Of a stretch of 55,744 bases of DNA, positions 25,379 to 42,870 are shown in pieces. A program made the position numbers and the translations under genes. Numbering within the stretch: the stretch's first letter is position 1; the number at the start of each line of letters is the position of its first letter. The notes under the pieces were generated by a model. That model worked only from the letters and a program-made list of their open reading frames with translations. It had not been told where the DNA came from and did not search any database. This DNA comes from Gammaproteobacteria bacterium (GTDB taxonomy: Bacteria; Pseudomonadota; Gammaproteobacteria; SZUA-229). The stretch covers positions 1-55,744 of the forward strand of contig JAOUMX010000003.1 in the NCBI GenBank assembly GCA_029881275.1, in the 5' to 3' direction.

Positions 25379-27403
25379 TTATTTTCTTGATCTAATTTGA
25401 ATATCAGGTAAGGCATCCAGTTGTTGCTGTAAAAAACTACTGGTGGTATTCAATTGCCCAATCAATGCATCCAGTGCGGTGAACTGTGCACGATAACGAT
25501 CTTCAATAGCAGCCACACGTTTATTAAGGCTTTCACGTTGTTCTGCAATACTTTTAATCTGATCATTGATTGTGTCTGTTTTAGATGTCAGTTGACCACT
25601 GCCGGATAAAAACCGGGCCAAAATTGCATCCAGTTTTCCAGCCAGCCCCTGACTATAAACTACACGGCCTCGATTACCTGTGTCATTACCGGAAATTTCC
25701 AGCGTTAAACCCAGTGCCGTTAATAACTGACCGTCACCGATGGCTGTTTTGCCACCAATAGTACCACTAACATTAACACCCTCTGTTTCAATGGCGTTAC
25801 TGGTGAAACCCAGTGCACTATTTGCATTAACAATACTGACTGTTGAATCACTGCCATAGGATGTAGAACTAATTTCAAAATGACCGCTTATATAACTAAC
25901 GGTGACACCCAAACCCTTATCAGATAAAGCAGTTGACGCATTAATCTTATCTTCGATTTCCTGCGCAAGAATATCCATATCATTATAAACAGCCTGGGTT
26001 AATGTGATGGTACCGGACGATGTACCATCAACAGAAAGACTGAATGTATTATTGGTACCATCAATAGTGACTGGCCCGGTAACCGCTTCCCCGGTTAATA
26101 AACCGTGGCTCGCTAATCTCGCTACACTTATTGCATAACTACCTTCGCTTGCAATAGATGCTGCACTGATATAGTTAACATCCGGGTCAGATGGCACACC
26201 ATTGGCATAAAATAATTCGGCAACCGATTCAAAATCATTTTCAATCGCCTTACTGAGTTTGGAACTATCCAGTGCCAGCGTACCATCCCGTTGCGTGGTA
26301 ATACCAATGGAACTTAATGACGTATAGATATTACCATTATTAACACTGCCACCAATTTCACGACGAATCTGGTTAATAATATTACGCGGCGTATTATCAC
26401 CTAACAACACACCACCCTGACCAGTGTCGGGATTATATTCGGTCAAACCACTATACAATGTCATCAATTCGTTATAAGCATCTACGAACTTACCAATATT
26501 TTTTTCTGCATTTTCCGTGCTTTTTGAAATGCTTAACTGAGTCGGATTACCAATATCTGCACTTTTTAAATTTAGCGTGACACCGTGTATGGCACCGGTA
26601 ATGGTATTACTTTCACGTGATATGGATAAACCATTCACCGTAATCAGGGCATCGGCTGCTGCCTGAGTTTGTTCTACATTGGTTGCACCACTGTTAAAGG
26701 CCAGTTGTGACAACCCTGTGGTATCCAGATTCTCACCAGCAGTACCACCTTCTTCTACAGAAATTTCAAGACTGTTGGCCAGACCCTGATCATCTGAAGT
26801 AATGAGCAAACGATAACCGGAACCATCATCCACAATACTGGCCGTAACACCGATACCAGCGGCGTTAATAGCATCACGCACACCTTCAACCGTATTATTT
26901 GAATTATCAATAACCACGGATTTGCTGGAACGATCAGGGTTACTGGTGAAACTGGTATAAGTATCATCCGCGGTTACAAAATCAGTACCCGGGTCATACA
27001 CCGTGGTTCCAAAATCAAACGTTAAAGTACCATTGCCAATAACAGACGTTAATTCAGAAAAGGCAACGGAGGCCAGTGAATGAGATTGAGCCAGTGACTT
27101 TACTTCAACAGAATAACTGCCTTCAACTGCCACACTGCTGGCCGTTGCGGATAACAGATCTTTATTAGCAATATTGACCGTATTGCTGGCAAATGAAATA
27201 GAGGATTTAAGTTTTGAAGCCGCTAGTTGAAAGGTACTGACTGCACCTTTCAAACTACCATAAGCAGATAGCTCAGCCTGTAAGCGAGCTTCCTTCAGCG
27301 TTAACTGAGCGTCCTTTGGGCCTCGTTCAGCATCAACTATCTGTTGTAACAGACTATTAACGTCGATTCCTGAACCTATTCCTGCTGCACTGAGTGAAGC
27401 CAT
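25379..27403 (-). CDS. fliD: Flagellar filament cap protein FliD (enlarged, 674 aa)
   Basis: The N-terminus SAAGIGSGIDVNSLLQQIVDAERGP and the C-terminus RYRAQFTALDALIGQLNTTSSFLQQQL are FliD hallmarks. Internal stretches resemble the IN motif (VEGVRDAINAAGIGVTASIVDDGSGYRLLITS; FSLSVDGTSSGTITL..INAS). Confidence 0.9.
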   Translation of the reverse strand: MASLSAAGIGSGIDVNSLLQQIVDAERGPKDAQLTLKEARLQAELSAYGSLKGAVSTFQLAASKLKSSISFASNTVNIANKDLLSATASSVAVEGSYSVEVKSLAQSHSLASVAFSELTSVIGNGTLTFDFGTTVYDPGTDFVTADDTYTSFTSNPDRSSKSVVIDNSNNTVEGVRDAINAAGIGVTASIVDDGSGYRLLITSDDQGLANSLEISVEEGGTAGENLDTTGLSQLAFNSGATNVEQTQAAADALITVNGLSISRESNTITGAIHGVTLNLKSADIGNPTQLSISKSTENAEKNIGKFVDAYNELMTLYSGLTEYNPDTGQGGVLLGDNTPRNIINQIRREIGGSVNNGNIYTSLSSIGITTQRDGTLALDSSKLSKAIENDFESVAELFYANGVPSDPDVNYISAASIASEGSYAISVARLASHGLLTGEAVTGPVTIDGTNNTFSLSVDGTSSGTITLTQAVYNDMDILAQEIEDKINASTALSDKGLGVTVSYISGHFEISSTSYGSDSTVSIVNANSALGFTSNAIETEGVNVSGTIGGKTAIGDGQLLTALGLTLEISGNDTGNRGRVVYSQGLAGKLDAILARFLSGSGQLTSKTDTINDQIKSIAEQRESLNKRVAAIEDRYRAQFTALDALIGQLNTTSSFLQQQLDALPDIQIRSRK

Positions 27404-30528: not shown

Positions 30529-30626
30529 AGCCTTTCTCCTGTTCTTCAGCCGCTTAACCAAGTCGACTGAAGTTACGACTTGTTTGTGGCGAAATTAACG
30601 TAAAGTTAGTTGTTCTTTCAGTGAAT

Positions 30627-30653
30627 GTATCGGCTTTACCCAGGTTTACTTTA
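30627..30653 (-). promoter_or_regulatory. Sigma-28 (FliA) promoter of the flagellin gene
   Basis: The minus strand reads TAAAGTAA-N11-GCCGATAC against the consensus TAAAGTTT-N11-GCCGATAA. It lies ~100 nt upstream of the ATG. An A8-GTC-T7-G-A8 tract (30665-30691) sits immediately upstream and resembles an UP element. Confidence 0.75.
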
Positions 30654-30845
30654 GAAAAATTTAGAAAAAAAAGTCTTTTTTTGAAAAAAAATATTAACTT
30701 GTTGATTTTGCTATCTATTTCATCAAAAGAAAAGGCTATTTAATAACTGATTTTAGCCCTGAAACGGGACTTTTGCCGGGTTTGCCGGAATAAATAAGAA
30801 GAGCTGGAACCATCTGAAAATGCCGTTGAGTGCTAACAGCAAAAG

Positions 30846-30918
30846 GGATTGCCACGCCAGGGCCGCCATGACCGAGGTGAATTGTCATGGCGAGACGTGT
30901 TTTACGTCACAGCAATCT
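30846..30918. repeat. GC-rich nested imperfect palindrome (REP-like element) between flgL and the flagellin promoter
   Basis: The inner 9-bp stem is cgccatgac/gtcatggcg (30863-30871 with 30883-30891). The outer arms are gattgc/gcaatc (30848-30853 with 30912-30917). Its GC content stands out from the AT-rich surroundings. Confidence 0.5.
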
Positions 30919-30990
30919 AGATAGCAGGCGCACATGACTTCGCTGGCGCCCACCACAACATGGAAAAAACTGGCTCTAACCTGTGACAGT

Positions 30991-33366
30991 TTAAATAAAA
31001 TTAAACAACGACAAGTTCTGTATCTTAACAAAGGTCTGCTGGGCTATCTGCAACACCGACGTCTGGAAGGTCATATTACTAATGGCTTCAGCCAGGTCCA
31101 GATCTTCAATATCGGATCGAATTTTCTGCATGTGTTCTTTTTTAGCCGCATTGGTTTCCAGCTGACTATCGATGGCGTTCAGTCGCCCACCAATACTGGT
31201 TTGTATTTTGGTCACGCTGTCGAAGGCCCGACTCAGATTATTTAATGCATTATCAATCTGCTGGGACAAATAGGAACGGTGTGGTGTGCCGGATAAAAAG
31301 CTCACCGCGCCATTACCCACGGTAATTTGCGGAATCACAGCACCAAATAAATTGGCTGCACCGACACCTGCCGCTTCAGCCACCGTAATCGTGGTACCCG
31401 GACCCGTTGCCGTGGTCGACAATGCCAGACCACCCACTGCGCTTTCAGTCGCAATCGCCACCGGGGAACCAAATGCGGAATTGATGGCAGTGTTGATGGC
31501 AGCCAGCAAAGCCGCCGATGTACCATCACCCACACCAACAGGGGCAGCGGTATAATCGACTGCGGGAATCACCACATTCTGAGTGACACCATTCACTTCA
31601 AGTGAAAAAGTACGATCGGCTGCCGCGACAGCGGAAAGATCCAGGCCCGCAGAAATATCGACACGCAAAGCAGCAATATTGGTTGCCGTCGCCGGGGTAC
31701 TGGCAGCTGATGAACTGGCAATGGTATTACCACTGGCCGTTAGACTTAAGACCGCATCATTGGCTACCGAGTCGCGTAAATTGCTAATACTAAATGTATT
31801 CTGATTATTTCTGGTGCCACCACTGCTAATAAACTCTATCTCTGTACCGGTCGCATTCAGTCGAAAAGTAATATCAGTACCGGGTGCTGAACCGGCAATG
31901 GTCACCGAACCATCGGGGTTAGTTACACCTGCAACGGCAGTGATTTCAGTAAAAATCTGTCCCGCAATGGCAGCATTACTGGCAGCACCAACAGTAAAGT
32001 TAATGGGTATAAACTGATCGTTGAACTGCATATTAAAATCAATCACGTCACCGACATCAAAACCGTTATTCACAAAGTCACCGCCAATGACACCACGAAC
32101 ATCAGCTGAGATGGGCGCTTCCAGACTGTTAATCAACTGATTTAAGGTATTAAACATATCCTGATGACGACTGGCTTCAACGGTAAACACATCACCATCG
32201 GCCGGTTCACCACTGATCTCAACCTGTATACCGTTAAAGGCAATGATGCCGCCATCACTATAAGCCTGATTAGCTAACACCGTGACACCGGTGGTGTTAT
32301 TAATCACACTGTATTCAAACTGGGGTGGATTGGCTGGTGCATCCGTTCCAGTAACTGAAAGACCACCACTGATGAAATCAGCAATCACAGCACCGCCAAG
32401 ATCAACATCACCATCGAAGTTACTGATAACCGGTGCCGTACTGGTTGCTCCGGTGGCGGTTCTGGCAATGGTAATGGTTCCAGCATTTTCGCTGACAGCA
32501 TAATTAGTTGTACCTAGCGCAGTGGCGATGGCTGCGGCCATTCCTGCCGGATCATTCACATTGGAGGCCAGGGTTACCGTAGTGGTATCCACATCAAAAC
32601 TGACCTGATCTGTCGTAAAATCAAACGATGCCAGTGCAGACACATCAATAGCATAACTGCCTGCAGTTGGCTGGTTTTCGCTGAACACAATGGAAAAATC
32701 GTGTGCCTGAACAAGCGAAGACGTGATCACCGAACCGGTTGATATTTTTGCAACGCCGCCATTGGTACTATTCGCATCCACTGCAAAGGTTCCATTGCCG
32801 GTACGAATCATCTGAAATACTTCGGCACCGGAATCATTGGCAATCACCTGTCGATTGGTACCAATCTGTATGGCCAGATTACCCTGGTCACCGTTATACA
32901 AATAGTTACCATTACCATCGCTGACAAAGGGCTCTATGGCAGACTGAAACCCGGCAAAAATAAATTCGCCACTGGCATCACGGGTATTGGCATAACCGAG
33001 TAATTCCTGAAGTTTTTCGCGTATTTCCGCGGCAATAATACGCTCTTCCTCACCACCATAAGTACCAATATTCGCAGCCTGTATGGACAGTTCTTTAACA
33101 CGAATTAATAAATTACTGACACTATCAAGTGTGCTTTCTTCAAGATTCAAACGCTGGGTCGCGTAATTGGCATTTTCTTCATGTTGTGTCATTTGCGAAA
33201 TCACTTCATCCAGACTCATGATGCGCGCAAAAGCACCGGGGTCATCAGAAGGTGACGTAAAATTCACACCTTTGGATATTTTATTCTGCTCGGCAACCAG
33301 TTTGGCCTGCTGATCCAGAATATTCTGAACACCCTGTGTATGAAGATATGTTGTCGAGACGCGCAT
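30991..33366 (-). CDS. flgL: Hook-filament junction protein FlgL (HAP3), greatly enlarged at 791 aa
   Basis: The N-terminus is flagellin-like (MRVSTTYLHTQGVQNILDQQAKL..SSPSDDP-type motif), and the C-terminus reads RLNAIDSQLE..DLDLAEAISNMTFQTSVLQIAQQTF. About 500 aa of central sequence is T/A/G/N-rich. Confidence 0.9.
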   Translation of the reverse strand: MRVSTTYLHTQGVQNILDQQAKLVAEQNKISKGVNFTSPSDDPGAFARIMSLDEVISQMTQHEENANYATQRLNLEESTLDSVSNLLIRVKELSIQAANIGTYGGEEERIIAAEIREKLQELLGYANTRDASGEFIFAGFQSAIEPFVSDGNGNYLYNGDQGNLAIQIGTNRQVIANDSGAEVFQMIRTGNGTFAVDANSTNGGVAKISTGSVITSSLVQAHDFSIVFSENQPTAGSYAIDVSALASFDFTTDQVSFDVDTTTVTLASNVNDPAGMAAAIATALGTTNYAVSENAGTITIARTATGATSTAPVISNFDGDVDLGGAVIADFISGGLSVTGTDAPANPPQFEYSVINNTTGVTVLANQAYSDGGIIAFNGIQVEISGEPADGDVFTVEASRHQDMFNTLNQLINSLEAPISADVRGVIGGDFVNNGFDVGDVIDFNMQFNDQFIPINFTVGAASNAAIAGQIFTEITAVAGVTNPDGSVTIAGSAPGTDITFRLNATGTEIEFISSGGTRNNQNTFSISNLRDSVANDAVLSLTASGNTIASSSAASTPATATNIAALRVDISAGLDLSAVAAADRTFSLEVNGVTQNVVIPAVDYTAAPVGVGDGTSAALLAAINTAINSAFGSPVAIATESAVGGLALSTTATGPGTTITVAEAAGVGAANLFGAVIPQITVGNGAVSFLSGTPHRSYLSQQIDNALNNLSRAFDSVTKIQTSIGGRLNAIDSQLETNAAKKEHMQKIRSDIEDLDLAEAISNMTFQTSVLQIAQQTFVKIQNLSLFNFI

Positions 33367-33368
33367 AG

Positions 33369-35729
33369 CTATACCACTTCAAGTAAGGTATTAAATAAAG
33401 TTTGTGCCGTTTGCACCACACGGGTCATAGCCTGATAAGCCTGCTGAAATTTAATTAAATTCGCCGCTTCTTCATCCAGGTTAACACCGGATAAAGATTC
33501 ACGTTCGGTAATGGCGTTATTTAATAATGTGGTTTCAACTTCAAGATTAATTTTAAACTGCTGCGTTAAAGTACCTATCTCAGATACCATGGCACGATAG
33601 GACTGTTCGTAACTGGCTGAGTAATTATCAATAAATGACTGGTTCTGTAAGCCCGCCAGTAACAGCATGTTTCGATTATCAGTTGCAGCACCGTCATTCA
33701 TTTCGACAGTTAAATTATCACCAGCTTCCGGACTGCCACTGATACGTACCTGCCAGCCATTCTGGCTGACCAGCATATTACTTGAATAGGCAACATTGTC
33801 CTGAAGTATGTTACCCGTGGCTCTATCAACCACATCAAAGGTACCCGTCGGATTGGTGGGATCAAAAAAAACATCAACAGTTCTTAGAAAATCGGCATGG
33901 GTTGCATCCGTAATCGTACCGGAAGAAATAGCCACATCCCCCAGATTTGAAACCGATGACAGTGTACGAATCGGAAAGGCAGCGGCAACGGCATTGGGAT
34001 CAGTAATGATGCGTTGAAATGCAATGGCGGCGGTACGCGTGGGACGAATAAAAAATGAATCCCCTGCATTAATAGCACCACCAACGGTTATATCCAGACC
34101 ATCGATATTAAAAGGACCAGTGGCACTGGTCGCGATAATGGATTTGTCACTTAATCGAAGCAGCGTGTAGTTGGCACCATCATAACTCACTTCATAATCA
34201 GACACGGTTAAGGCAGATACATCACTGATCGTATAAAGAACTTCACCTGTACCGGTATTATTTATATTCGAAATGGCCGAATTACTCGGACCGACAAACG
34301 TAACCGGAATGCCTACAGTGGCAATGCCCGGATTAAAACTGGTACTGTTAGACCCGATACCTGCCAGTGACAACCGGGCATCCACCGTACCCACAGCATT
34401 ATCATCCAGCATATTATTAATCACCAGGGTATTACCCAGAGAACTCGGACCACCGGCTGATTGAAATTCAATATTGCTGCCATTTAACTGAAATGTGAGT
34501 GAGACACCGGCCGTGGCACCACCTGCCAGAGTATAGGTGCCATCGAGGTTATCGGTTACATTTGCATTGGCATTGATGTCCGCAATAATGCCATTGGCAA
34601 TATCAAGATTAGTATCAAGTGCGCCAACAGTATAGGCAACATTAATGGTCTGTCCGTCAAACACCAGATCAAAACTAACCGTATCACCGACTTCAAAACC
34701 GGCGTTTAAATAATCACCACCAAAACTACCGCGCAAATTACCCACGCCCACGGTGCTGAAAAAATTTGTTCCCATGTTGCCATTCAGATCCAGACCCTGA
34801 ACATGCTGCGCATTAAATGTTTCTGACAAGGCAATGGCGGTGCGCCCGAGTCTGTTTTGTGCGACATCTAACAGATTATTTCTGAAATCCAGCAAGCCAC
34901 CCAGTTCACCACCAATCGCCGTATTGCTTAAATCCAGTGAACCACCGGTACTGCGTAATCGAATGGCTAAACGATCCGGCTGTGCGGGATCAGCCTGTGC
35001 ACCTAATTGTAAAGCAGTGGTTCCGGTGACCAGTAACTGACCTGAACCCATGAGCACATTTAAAGTACCATCACCCTGCTCAAGAACAGTGACGGTCATT
35101 TTTTCTGATAACCGTTTTAAGACCAGATCCCGTTTATCCAGCAGATCATTAGGTTGCTGATTGACTGCAGCCACTCTGATGATGGCATCATTCAGGCGGG
35201 CAATATCGGCCGTTAATGCATTTACTTCATTGATGGTAAAACTGATACGCTCATCAGCTTCCTGTTCCATATTCTGCATTTCTGTACCGATGGTAACAAA
35301 TGAATGCTCAAGCACCTCTGCTGCACCCAGCAAGGCAACTCGTGGCTCGTAACCGGCCGGGTCATTGGCAACATCATTGAGAGAATTAAAGAAGCCATCC
35401 ATTGCTGACATTAAACCACCCGACTCATTGGCTACCAGAGACTCCACCCGGGTAGCAAACTCCTCGAAAATACCCATGCGCGATGTGGTCGAAGTAAACT
35501 CACGAATATTCGCAGTAACATAATTATTAACAATACGGCGAACATCATCGGTCAGTACACCCTGGCCAATAAACTCATCACCCACTCGAAGGGGGGTGCG
35601 TGTTGCCAGCTCGACATCCTGACGGGAATAACCTTCAGTGCCGACATTAGCAATATTATGGGATGTGGTCGCAAGCGCAGCTTGATAGGCATTTAAGCCA
35701 GTTAAAGATGTAGTTAAAATATCAGGCAT
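33369..35729 (-). CDS. flgK: Hook-associated protein FlgK (HAP1), 786 aa
   Basis: The N-terminus GLNAYQAALATTSHNIANVGTEGYSRQ and the C-terminus SGVNLDEEAANLIKFQQAYQAMTRVVQTAQTLFNTLL are FlgK hallmarks. Confidence 0.95.
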   Translation of the reverse strand: MPDILTTSLTGLNAYQAALATTSHNIANVGTEGYSRQDVELATRTPLRVGDEFIGQGVLTDDVRRIVNNYVTANIREFTSTTSRMGIFEEFATRVESLVANESGGLMSAMDGFFNSLNDVANDPAGYEPRVALLGAAEVLEHSFVTIGTEMQNMEQEADERISFTINEVNALTADIARLNDAIIRVAAVNQQPNDLLDKRDLVLKRLSEKMTVTVLEQGDGTLNVLMGSGQLLVTGTTALQLGAQADPAQPDRLAIRLRSTGGSLDLSNTAIGGELGGLLDFRNNLLDVAQNRLGRTAIALSETFNAQHVQGLDLNGNMGTNFFSTVGVGNLRGSFGGDYLNAGFEVGDTVSFDLVFDGQTINVAYTVGALDTNLDIANGIIADINANANVTDNLDGTYTLAGGATAGVSLTFQLNGSNIEFQSAGGPSSLGNTLVINNMLDDNAVGTVDARLSLAGIGSNSTSFNPGIATVGIPVTFVGPSNSAISNINNTGTGEVLYTISDVSALTVSDYEVSYDGANYTLLRLSDKSIIATSATGPFNIDGLDITVGGAINAGDSFFIRPTRTAAIAFQRIITDPNAVAAAFPIRTLSSVSNLGDVAISSGTITDATHADFLRTVDVFFDPTNPTGTFDVVDRATGNILQDNVAYSSNMLVSQNGWQVRISGSPEAGDNLTVEMNDGAATDNRNMLLLAGLQNQSFIDNYSASYEQSYRAMVSEIGTLTQQFKINLEVETTLLNNAITERESLSGVNLDEEAANLIKFQQAYQAMTRVVQTAQTLFNTLLEVV

Positions 35730-40448: not shown

Positions 40449-42173
40449 CTAACGTATATTGATAATGGTTTGCGTAATTGTATTGGCCGTTTCAATGGCT
40501 TTTGAATTCGCCTGGAAATTACGTTGCGCAGTAATCAGTTTCACCAGCTGTGCGGTTAAATCCACATTCGATGTTTCCAGTGCACCTGCCTGAATTAAAC
40601 CAAAGTTACCGGTACCGGCTTCACCTGACACAGCCTGACCTGAACTTACCGTTTCTACCCAGGACGTATTACCAATCTGATTCAAACCCTGGGGATTATC
40701 AAAACGTGCCAACGCAATTTTACCCAGTGCTGTTGTCTGACCATTAGTGAAACTGGCCCGTACCAGACCTTCATCATCAATTTCCAGACCACTTAAACGA
40801 CCGGTAGCAAAACCATCCTGATTCAATGACTGTACTGAAAATGAACCCTGTGCTTCCTGGGTAATGGTATTACCCTGATTAGTGAAATCGATATTAAAAG
40901 TGGTATTGGGAGACCCAATTGGATTGGCACCATTCAATGGATTAAAAGGTGCATACTGAACGTTACCACCATTAGTCGAAGTTGCTGCCTGCAATACACC
41001 GGCACCATCAAAATCCAGTGCTGCATTCCAGGTTGGAGTGAAAAGTGGATTGGTGGCAGCTGCACCGGCTATGGTTGTTGTGCCTGTGACGATATCAACA
41101 GCTGTACCACTGGCGATAATATTACTAATCGCTATATCACTGGTAGCACCTGGAGTGTTACTGGTAATCACAAGATTACCACTGGTAGAATCAGCCGTCG
41201 CTGCAGCACCAAGAGCCGCGTTAATTGCAGCATCAAGTGCTGCAGCGTTGAGGTAAGGTGCATTTAAAACGACAGGTATAGCAGGTGCAACACCATCGAC
41301 TGTTACATCAAACGAAAGTGTGTTGGGGGCCGAGTAATCCACTGGAAAAGCAATCGCCGCAGTACCTGTATATACCTCAGCAATATCGGGTGTTGGCACA
41401 CCAGGGCCGATCGTGTTTGGCATCGGATAGCCATCCATGGTTGAACGCACCTGCCAGGTATTCTGAAGGTCATCATTCATGACAAAATACATGGTTAAGA
41501 TGTGTGAGTTACCCTGCGAATCGAACACCGTTGCCGAGGTTGACGTATGGTAATTATTAGGATTAGGTGCCACCTGTGCAAGGGCACGGCCATTCACATC
41601 ACCACCGCCATAGGCCAGGGAAAATTCAGCATCAATCGCCGCCGTAGATAATGCTACCGGTATATCTGACGGAAAACTTAAATTGATATCCACCTGCGTG
41701 GTTCCCTGTGGCGTTCCCACTGTATTGGGTACCTGTAAAGGCACAGTGCCGGATAAACTGGTGGTCGTTACATTACCGACAGCATCCACAGGAAACACCT
41801 GTAATACCTGAGCTGCACTATTGGCAATGATGCCATTTTGATTAACATTAAATGCGCCTGCACGGGTATAGATAAGATCATTAGTGCCCTGCTCACGCAT
41901 GACATAAAAACCTTCACCGGTAATGGCCAGATCAAGTGTATTCTCGGTAAATTCCAGATTACCCTGAGTAAACTGTTGAGAAACATTTGCCAGCACCACA
42001 CCATCACCAATAGCTTTGCTGGTTGAACCCAGTGATGAAGCAGCAAAGATATCGGCAAACTCGGCACGTGATCCTTTAAAACCGGTGGTACCGACATTGG
42101 CAATATTATTACTGGTTACTGACAGATCCGAAGATGCTGCATTAAGACCACTCAATGAAATACTAAACGACAT
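40449..42173 (-). CDS. flgE: Flagellar hook protein FlgE (enlarged, 574 aa from the preferred start)
   Basis: MSFSISLSGLNAASSDLSVTSNNIANVGTTGFK and the C-terminal LETSNVDLTAQLVKLITAQRNFQANSKAIETANTITQTIINIR are FlgE hallmarks. The ATG at 42173 has a GAGGAG Shine-Dalgarno sequence. The ORF-track start at 42251 overlaps flgD. Confidence 0.9.
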   Translation of the reverse strand: MSFSISLSGLNAASSDLSVTSNNIANVGTTGFKGSRAEFADIFAASSLGSTSKAIGDGVVLANVSQQFTQGNLEFTENTLDLAITGEGFYVMREQGTNDLIYTRAGAFNVNQNGIIANSAAQVLQVFPVDAVGNVTTTSLSGTVPLQVPNTVGTPQGTTQVDINLSFPSDIPVALSTAAIDAEFSLAYGGGDVNGRALAQVAPNPNNYHTSTSATVFDSQGNSHILTMYFVMNDDLQNTWQVRSTMDGYPMPNTIGPGVPTPDIAEVYTGTAAIAFPVDYSAPNTLSFDVTVDGVAPAIPVVLNAPYLNAAALDAAINAALGAAATADSTSGNLVITSNTPGATSDIAISNIIASGTAVDIVTGTTTIAGAAATNPLFTPTWNAALDFDGAGVLQAATSTNGGNVQYAPFNPLNGANPIGSPNTTFNIDFTNQGNTITQEAQGSFSVQSLNQDGFATGRLSGLEIDDEGLVRASFTNGQTTALGKIALARFDNPQGLNQIGNTSWVETVSSGQAVSGEAGTGNFGLIQAGALETSNVDLTAQLVKLITAQRNFQANSKAIETANTITQTIINIR

Positions 42174-42195
42174 AGTTGTCTCCTCGGACTTCGCT

Positions 42196-42870
42196 CTACA
42201 AAATTTTAACGACCTGACTGAAACCAATCTGACCCAGATGTTCCAGTTCAACTTTCATTTCTTTACCAACACCACCCAGTGTCAGACTAATAACATTTGC
42301 AGACACTAACGGGGTAACGGATTCGGCTTCACCATGTCGACTGGCTTCAACTTCAATTCGGTAAGTACCTGCCGGTGCACGCTGATCATTAAGTGTGGTG
42401 CCATCCCAGTTAAACTGAACAAGTCCTCTGGACTGTGCACCCAGATCAACACGATTGATCAATGAGTCATTTGCATCGTAAATATTGACGACAACATTTT
42501 CAGCACTTGAACTTAATTCAACTGCAGAATTAACACTGCCACCCGTTTCCAGATATGCTTCATCATGCTTGATCAGCACATTGCGACCGATTAAATTTGA
42601 GGCTTCCAGAGCCTGGCTGGATTGCAAACTGGCAGCCATACTTTTAAATGATGTGAGTAATTCATTCACACCATTAACGGTACCAAACTGCGCCATCTGG
42701 GCAAGAAAATCACCATTATCCATTGGCTCAAACGGGTCCTGATTGCTTAACTGTGTTGTCATCAGTTTTAAAAAAGCATCCTGACCCAGTGATGATTTAT
42801 CATTAATCGCATCATCGGCAGCATCACGATATGACCGCAAACCAAGCGCATTGATTGAATCGACTTCCAT
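42196..42870 (-). CDS. flgD: Hook capping and assembly protein FlgD
   Basis: LGQDAFLKLMTTQLSNQDPFEPMDNGDFLAQMAQF is the FlgD signature. A FlgD Ig-like C-terminal part follows. Confidence 0.9.
   Translation of the reverse strand: MEVDSINALGLRSYRDAADDAINDKSSLGQDAFLKLMTTQLSNQDPFEPMDNGDFLAQMAQFGTVNGVNELLTSFKSMAASLQSSQALEASNLIGRNVLIKHDEAYLETGGSVNSAVELSSSAENVVVNIYDANDSLINRVDLGAQSRGLVQFNWDGTTLNDQRAPAGTYRIEVEASRHGEAESVTPLVSANVISLTLGGVGKEMKVELEHLGQIGFSQVVKIL

Follow-up and report, generated by a model that had tools for sequence, protein, structure and literature searches.

The outer domains of the two hook-filament junction proteins of the flagellum, FlgK (hook-associated protein 1, HAP1) and FlgL (hook-associated protein 3, HAP3), have been compared before. 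A beta-sandwich D2 domain is common to Xanthomonas FlgL (5ZIZ/5ZJ0) and Burkholderia FlgK (4UT1), and it was proposed that D2 decorates the exterior of the junction and permits quasi-homotypic FlgK-FlgL contacts (Hong et al. 2018, PMC6155364). In Salmonella, the native junction has its D1 helices buried, with D2 of both proteins facing outward (PMC12221982). Enlarged hook-filament junctions are found in Campylobacter and Helicobacter (FlgK 5XBJ, junction-cap complex 9GSX; PMC5691160, PMC12221982), and in the flagellin of Geovibrio thiophilus D4 is related to D2 of FliD, with D5 being a nested duplicate of D4 (Fields et al. 2024, PMC11532411). Here we describe a further domain, referred to below as the module, that occurs in both FlgK and FlgL encoded by a 55,744-nucleotide stretch of DNA (contig JAOUMX010000003.1 of assembly GCA_029881275.1; hereafter the window), and that was probably copied from flgL into the adjacent flgK. 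The contig is metagenome assembled and comes from an uncultured marine gammaproteobacterium.

A domain common to FlgK and FlgL

The two genes and the module copies within them were located as follows (aa, amino acids; nt, nucleotides).

33369..35729, minus strand: flgK, 786 aa, assigned from TIGR02492, Pfam domains, fold and position
30991..33366, minus strand: flgL, 791 aa, directly after flgK, assigned from TIGR02550 and from Flagellin_N plus Flagellin_C
34272..34754, minus strand: FlgK copy of the module, aa 326-486, between D1 and D2, delimited by a clean indel against sister FlgKs, the 4UT1 alignment and an AlphaFold2 model, with the translation checked
31702..32112, minus strand: main part of the FlgL copy, aa 419-555, delimited by alignment with FlgK and related FlgLs
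31276..31323, minus strand: last strand segment of the FlgL copy, aa 682-697, 'TVGNGAVSFLSGTPHR', delimited by alignment

The initial annotation of this DNA had reported a clear similarity between FlgL aa 424-546 (nt 31729-32097) and FlgK aa 333-458 (nt 34356-34733), and these coordinates were exact, agreeing with the minus-strand translation. The two segments aligned at 47-50% amino acid identity, far above chance. BLASTP with compositional matrix adjustment gave E=3e-21 for the FlgL and FlgK modules, and the Smith-Waterman alignment, in which 58 of 117 aligned residues (50%) were identical, scored 222, compared with 38.8 ± 7.1 (maximum 68) in 2000 shuffles (z=25.7); the likeness therefore stays significant after correction for composition. 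Every one of the conserved anchors that had been named was found in the module alignment, and tblastn detected exactly two module copies in the window. The DNA, however, had been taken to be roughly three-quarters identical, whereas a codon-anchored alignment gave 55-56% identity, with 44% at third positions, a longest identical run of 10 nt and a maximum identity of 0.67 in any 20-codon window. A figure of 76% mean column identity is a majority-fraction statistic, distinct from pairwise identity.

The sharing of a module was thus borne out, but its length of ~125 aa was an underestimate, as the real extent is about 155-160 aa. Compared with the 631-655-aa FlgKs of sister genomes, the FlgK module is a clean insertion between '...NFFS' and 'NNTGTG...', and aa 326 and aa 485 of the window FlgK correspond to residues 339 and 344 of Burkholderia FlgK 4UT1, a segment (339-344) in which the chain passes from D1 into D2. 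The FlgL module lies between the post-D2 helix 'RHQDMFNTLNQLINSLEAP' (alpha3b) and the C-terminal D1 helix, and basic FlgLs of 397-412 aa are without it. The two insertion sites are non-homologous, the order being D1N-module-D2-D1C in FlgK versus D1N-D2-alpha3b-module-D1C in FlgL. A conserved strand with the motif 'ITVGGxxTFxxG' closes the module; its representative in the window FlgL is aa 682-697, which aligned with 'ITVGGNETFLPG' of 550-aa FlgLs and with 'ATVGIPVTFVG' of FlgK, and which is parted from aa 419-555 by a nested insert (insert B below). BLAST had extended the alignment upstream (FlgL 333-418 versus FlgK 229-325), but this part was rejected as a non-homologous run-on. Taken together, two axial proteins have a domain in common that their close homologues lack and whose insertion boundary is clean.

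FlgK scored 311.3 bits against the TIGR02492 equivalog model (cut-off 170.75), and FlgL scored 253.4 bits against TIGR02550 (cut-off 127.2). The Pfam set of FlgK comprised Flg_bb_rod PF00460, FlgK_D1 PF22638 (aa 93-324, E=7e-67), flgK_1st_1 PF21158, the D2-like beta domain (aa 486-563, E=3.5e-20), and Flg_bbr_C PF06429, and FlgL showed the flagellin-type terminal helices (PF00669, E=5e-16; PF00700, E=2e-6). Equivalog score, domain set, fold and the flgJ-flgK-flgL gene order all identified the product of flgK as FlgK, and its sequence was identical to that of P0021, labelled FlgK in an NCBI metagenome-assembled genome. Both window proteins also have the D2 domain of Hong et al., which was seen as a separate, weak alignment of FlgL aa 344-397 with FlgK aa 624-676 (second BLASTP alignment, E=2e-7, 43% identity). 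The D2 segments and two further FlgL inserts are these.

32176..32337, minus strand: FlgL D2 beta-sandwich segment, aa 344-397, from the second BLASTP alignment and a weak PF21158 match
33702..33860, minus strand: FlgK D2 segment, aa 624-676, counterpart of the FlgL D2 segment, from the second BLASTP alignment
32326..32679, minus strand: insert A, 118 aa, in FlgL D2, aa 230-347, missing from 550-aa FlgLs
31324..31701, minus strand: insert B, 126 aa, nested in the FlgL module, aa 556-681, missing from 548-563-aa FlgLs

Inserts A and B are both strand-helix-strand in pattern and both specific to the sub-lineage of the window. Insert B is confined to the window lineage (P0002, P0003/L113), and insert A is present twice in the 905-920-aa FlgLs P0003/L113. 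Insert A resembled aa 266-344 of the window flagellin weakly (E=0.002, 35% identity) and a stretch of FliD at E=0.24. When the module was compared by hhalign with inserts A and B and with Flagellin_IN-type inserts, nothing significant was obtained (probabilities 0.3-9%).

Occurrence of the module and probable direction of the copy

An exhaustive profile search over 1.84 billion (1.84e9) representative proteins returned 18 hits, among which the genuine carriers were four FlgLs (P0002, P0003, P0006 and P0016) and two FlgKs (P0004 and P0005). P0016 is a distant but bona fide FlgL of 1423 aa, and it was detected with a profile that excluded it at E=1.3e-10 at full database size; near-complete module copies lie at its aa 396-540 and 921-1057, among many other repeats, and a partial third copy of the module's N-terminal unit lies at aa 309-361. 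The others in the range P0007-P0019 were rejected as repeat proteins (DUF11, Big_6, PKD, cold-shock-like) rather than homologues, as the matches were limited to the 'TDNGDGTxT' hairpin or the 'GFxVGDxVxF' strand. Word-indexed protein searches, for which the queries were the FlgL module and a module alignment of 12 sequences, yielded no more than one 105-aa fragment and one 273-aa FlgK fragment. The former, an ENA sequence (P0001) matching the FlgL module, switches near its end to 'RSEERRVGKECRSRGWPYG', which is unrelated to FlgL, and the short contig behind it is probably chimeric. A Pfam scan of 12 module members assigned no family, and a search of PDB sequences with the module profile found no significant relative; sub-threshold Ig-like matches were to filamin-C (E=0.0045, PDB sequences) and to the Pfam Filamin repeat (E=0.009, in 2 of the 12 members). 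As far as the databases show, the module thus appears to occur only in FlgL and FlgK. Judged by these searches, it is an undescribed domain family, apparently specific to hook-associated proteins, and literature searches turned up no report of it or of a traceable FlgL-to-FlgK domain copy.

At the level of genomes, an FlgI-based scan of species representatives found the module in 3 of 80 loci, and a metagenome scan with the module DNA pattern added 38 further loci. A full-length FlgK search yielded ~80 clusters with the module (774-803 aa) and ~30 module-less sisters (631-655 aa). The contig of the closest genome relative (L001, FlgI 95% identical) stops short of flgK. In one locus (L095, 5023-7374) FlgK is split over two open reading frames (632 + 141 aa), which may reflect a frameshift, a stop codon or a sequencing error. 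The distribution of the module over the two genes was as follows.

Module in both genes: 31 loci and the window
Module in FlgL only: 7 loci (L002, L005, L106, L122-L125)
Module in neither gene: 1 locus (L121)
Module in FlgK only: 0 loci

The three states observed (both, FlgL only, neither) fall within one clade. Trees were built by neighbour-joining on about 150 columns. In the tree of FlgK cores, the module-bearing FlgKs, the FlgL-only genomes and L121 formed a clade with 100% bootstrap, within which 57% of replicates placed the module-bearing FlgKs in a monophyletic group. In the module tree, one clade took in 37 of the 38 FlgK copies (64-67% bootstrap), and the FlgL copies were monophyletic in only 2% of bootstraps, indicating that the FlgK clade is nested among the FlgL copies. 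Across 32 genomes, the mean identities of module copies were as follows.

FlgK versus FlgL, same genome: 43%
FlgK versus FlgL, other genomes: 42%
FlgK versus FlgK: 65%
FlgL versus FlgL: 54%

As the FlgK-FlgL identity within a genome was the same as that between genomes, these values indicate one old copying from flgL to flgK, followed by vertical descent and no general concerted evolution. The view that this is an old duplication or transfer between junction proteins was thereby upheld, and the module and core phylogenies added to it a direction and a single event. The direction from flgL to flgK is well supported by the distribution and only moderately by the phylogeny.

One locus departs from this general pattern. 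In L091 (Ga0209692_10000081), nucleotide identity between the two module copies is 82-85% over the N-terminal half, which contains a 30-nt identical run, and 28-55% over the C-terminal half, a pattern resembling a later partial gene-conversion tract. In the window, no conversion tract was found between the module copies.

We consider the following explanation the best, at a probability of roughly three in four: the module is an independently folding accessory domain of ~155-160 aa that was copied once from flgL to flgK, was then inherited vertically and forms part of an outer junction layer. The module would have been present first in FlgL, following helix alpha3b and preceding the C-terminal D1 helix. 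In the ancestor of one uncultured marine or sediment gammaproteobacterial lineage, a coding segment of ~470 nt would then have been copied once, in frame, into the adjacent upstream flgK, at the non-homologous site where the chain leaves D1 for D2. Both copies would thereafter have been inherited vertically, diverging to about 45% identity under purifying selection. In the assembled flagellum, 11 FlgK and 11 FlgL subunits would each show the domain outside the junction, beside D2, and this added outer layer would match the enlarged outer layers of the hook (FlgE), filament (flagellin) and cap (FliD).

The other explanations were weighed against this one. That the likeness is due to chance or composition, or to a chimeric assembly, might be thought of because FlgK and FlgL are both rich in Thr, Ser, Asn, Gly and Ala and because the window is a metagenome-assembled contig; the composition-adjusted E-value and the shuffling test argue against the former, the identical FlgK-FlgL pair in two independent assemblies and the same architecture in 31 other loci argue against the latter, and the earlier judgement that no assembly artefact is involved was confirmed, leaving this possibility practically negligible. 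It is also very improbable that the likeness merely reflects common axial-protein ancestry, whether as the D2-D2 resemblance already described or as a flagellin IN-motif domain of a general kind, with no specific duplication. In favour of this view, FlgL D2 is known to resemble FlgK D2 (PMC6155364), the second, weak alignment being of that kind, and the first half of the module has the order strand-strand-helix-strand, which is typical of IN-motif units. The module, however, lies outside the PF21158 D2 segments (FlgK 486-563, FlgL 364-397), at non-homologous positions, and is lacking from most FlgKs and FlgLs, and in 54 of 59 related pairs any D2 similarity was weak at best (E 1e-4 to 1e-9). 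Moreover, the module alone had no PF21158 match at E<=1, none of 12 module sequences matched Flagellin_IN PF07196 at E<=1, and hhalign against the IN inserts of the L006 type gave a probability of 1.5%.

Recent duplication in this genome, or gene conversion keeping the two copies alike, is suggested by the adjacency and common orientation of flgK and flgL, and L091 illustrates that conversion can happen. The copies in the window, however, are only 55% identical at the nucleotide level, with no identical run longer than 10 nt, the within-genome and between-genome identities are equal, and FlgK copies cluster with the FlgK copies of other genomes; we therefore regard it as less credible still than common ancestry. 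An opposite direction, with the module ancestral in FlgK and then copied to FlgL, or an independent gain by both genes from a third protein, deserves somewhat more weight but is still quite unlikely. The FlgK copies are more conserved than the FlgL copies, so that at equal rates the FlgL copy could be the derived and relaxed one, and tree support is modest. On the other side, the module is found in FlgL only in seven genomes and in FlgK only in none, the distant FlgL P0016 has two or more copies, and the FlgL copies are paraphyletic to the FlgK copies in about 96% of bootstraps; among the 1.84e9 representatives, no third family with the module was found.

Several points weigh against a single copy from flgL to flgK that decorates the junction. 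The direction rests on the distribution and on neighbour-joining trees with modest support, and nesting could be mimicked if the root were drawn towards a fast-evolving group of FlgLs to which the window copy belongs. L121 (Ga0216255_10000497), whose FlgK (640 aa) and FlgL (402 aa) both lack the module, is placed together with the FlgL-only genomes by the FlgK-core tree, which requires one or more losses or else a later acquisition by FlgL. The FlgK copy of L003 falls outside the main FlgK clade in most bootstraps. Finally, the outward exposure of the module is drawn from its insertion site and not from model coordinates.

Structure, gene context and likely role

Full-length FlgK was modelled with AlphaFold2 using 114 FlgK sequences, the model covering the FlgK copy of the module. 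Mean predicted local distance difference test (pLDDT) was 88.9 and the predicted template modelling score (pTM) was 0.79, with pLDDT 84-95 in the module region; a single-sequence AlphaFold prediction of FlgK (pLDDT 39) was unusable. The module was mostly beta in the model, with three strands, a helix at aa 374-386 and nine further strands (12 in total), and is thus predicted with confidence to be a separate domain of FlgK. By Foldseek, the FlgK model matched Salmonella FlgK of the native junction (9U4R/9GO6) at E=4e-38 with a target-normalised template modelling (TM) score of 0.89-0.91, and the query-normalised TM score was 0.64, as the window FlgK has the module and other parts in addition. 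With the whole FlgK model as query, Foldseek matched solely FlgK, FlgL and flagellin chains.

Pairwise identity averaged 0.60 in the module of 79 FlgKs that carry it, compared with 0.61 in their D1 and 0.60-0.63 in their D2. The module is therefore conserved like D1 and D2, indicating comparable constraint. As D2 faces outward in the native junction, an insertion at the D1/D2 boundary should be external too, and most likely the module is an exposed accessory domain of the hook-filament junction, its exposure being inferred from the insertion site. The module may have a mechanical or surface role. The two copies might form a continuous collar, as initially suggested; of this idea, the present data support the exposed position of the insertion site. 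The FlgK copy was never seen without the FlgL copy. The two could be kept together by mutual contact across the FlgK-FlgL interface, forming an interlocked second shell, a dedicated outer junction layer made by duplication of one domain, that mechanically couples an unusually thick, decorated hook to an unusually thick filament, but we hold this idea to be tentative and rather unlikely.

The two genes, spaced by 2 nt, belong to a flagellar and chemotaxis cluster on the minus strand in the order flgB-C-D-E-F-G-H-I-J, flgK, flgL, flagellin, flaG, fliD, fliS, beyond which lie fleQ/fleS/fleR-like regulators, fliF to fliK and che genes. The gap between flgL and the flagellin gene (30562-30990, 430 nt) is non-coding and presumably contains the flagellin promoter region. 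The exposed axial proteins are all unusually long, FlgK (786 aa) and FlgL (791 aa) being accompanied by the following open reading frames.

40449-42251, minus strand: hook FlgE, 600 aa
27967-30561, minus strand: flagellin with IN motifs, 864 aa (853 aa from the ATG start)
25379-27403, minus strand: cap FliD, 674 aa

This suggests a generally thick, decorated flagellum.

Comparison with described axial proteins

Diversification of flagellar outer layers has usually been inferred from likeness of fold alone. Here the steps survive in living lineages and can be dated, from no module through a module in FlgL only and a copy in FlgK to further nested inserts in FlgL, and they provide a natural experiment for the published proposal that the junction is reinforced by matched outer domains of FlgK and FlgL. 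Understanding of the junction mechanism is unchanged and no new system is added; for this reason, and because the organism is uncultured, its practical use is restricted to work on the structure and evolution of flagella.

Like the D2 domain of Hong et al., the module is an accessory domain added to the helical D1 core in both junction proteins. Unlike D2, it is an additional domain with no PF21158 match, sits at non-homologous sites and is confined to one lineage, in which the copies are about 45-50% identical, so that a datable copying event stands against a resemblance of fold. The Geovibrio flagellin likewise shows an outer layer growing by recombination of flagellar-gene domains, including nesting, and FlgL insert B follows the same pattern; that case, however, is known at the level of fold, whereas the present one links FlgL and FlgK at the level of sequence and retains the intermediate genome states. 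Campylobacter and Helicobacter also have bulky extra outer domains of FlgK and FlgL where the hook and filament are elaborated, but these have no detectable sequence relation to the module, and one domain common to FlgK and FlgL has not been reported there.

The flagellin hook IN motif (PF07196), a small unit of strand-helix-strand type, similarly recurs here and there in flagellins, FliD and hook-associated proteins, but the module has no match to its hidden Markov model, reaches a profile-profile probability of 1.5-9% and is about three times as long. A parallel case involving this motif was seen in another gammaproteobacterial lineage (L006, 12154-16031; L007, L033 and L035), in which a ~125-aa Flagellin_IN-type insert is nested in D2 of both FlgK (767-776 aa) and FlgL (521 aa), the aligned region covering ~210 aa at 41-44% identity (E=1e-29 to 1e-35). 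Among 59 FlgK/FlgL pairs from related genomes, strong sharing was found only in L003, with the module described here, and in these four loci, with the IN-type insert. Two separate shared inserts indicate that copying of outer domains between the adjacent junction genes has happened at least two times. The growth of flagellar outer layers by domain recombination was already known for flagellin; the probable copy from FlgL to FlgK adds a new case of it, and the domain family itself is undescribed.

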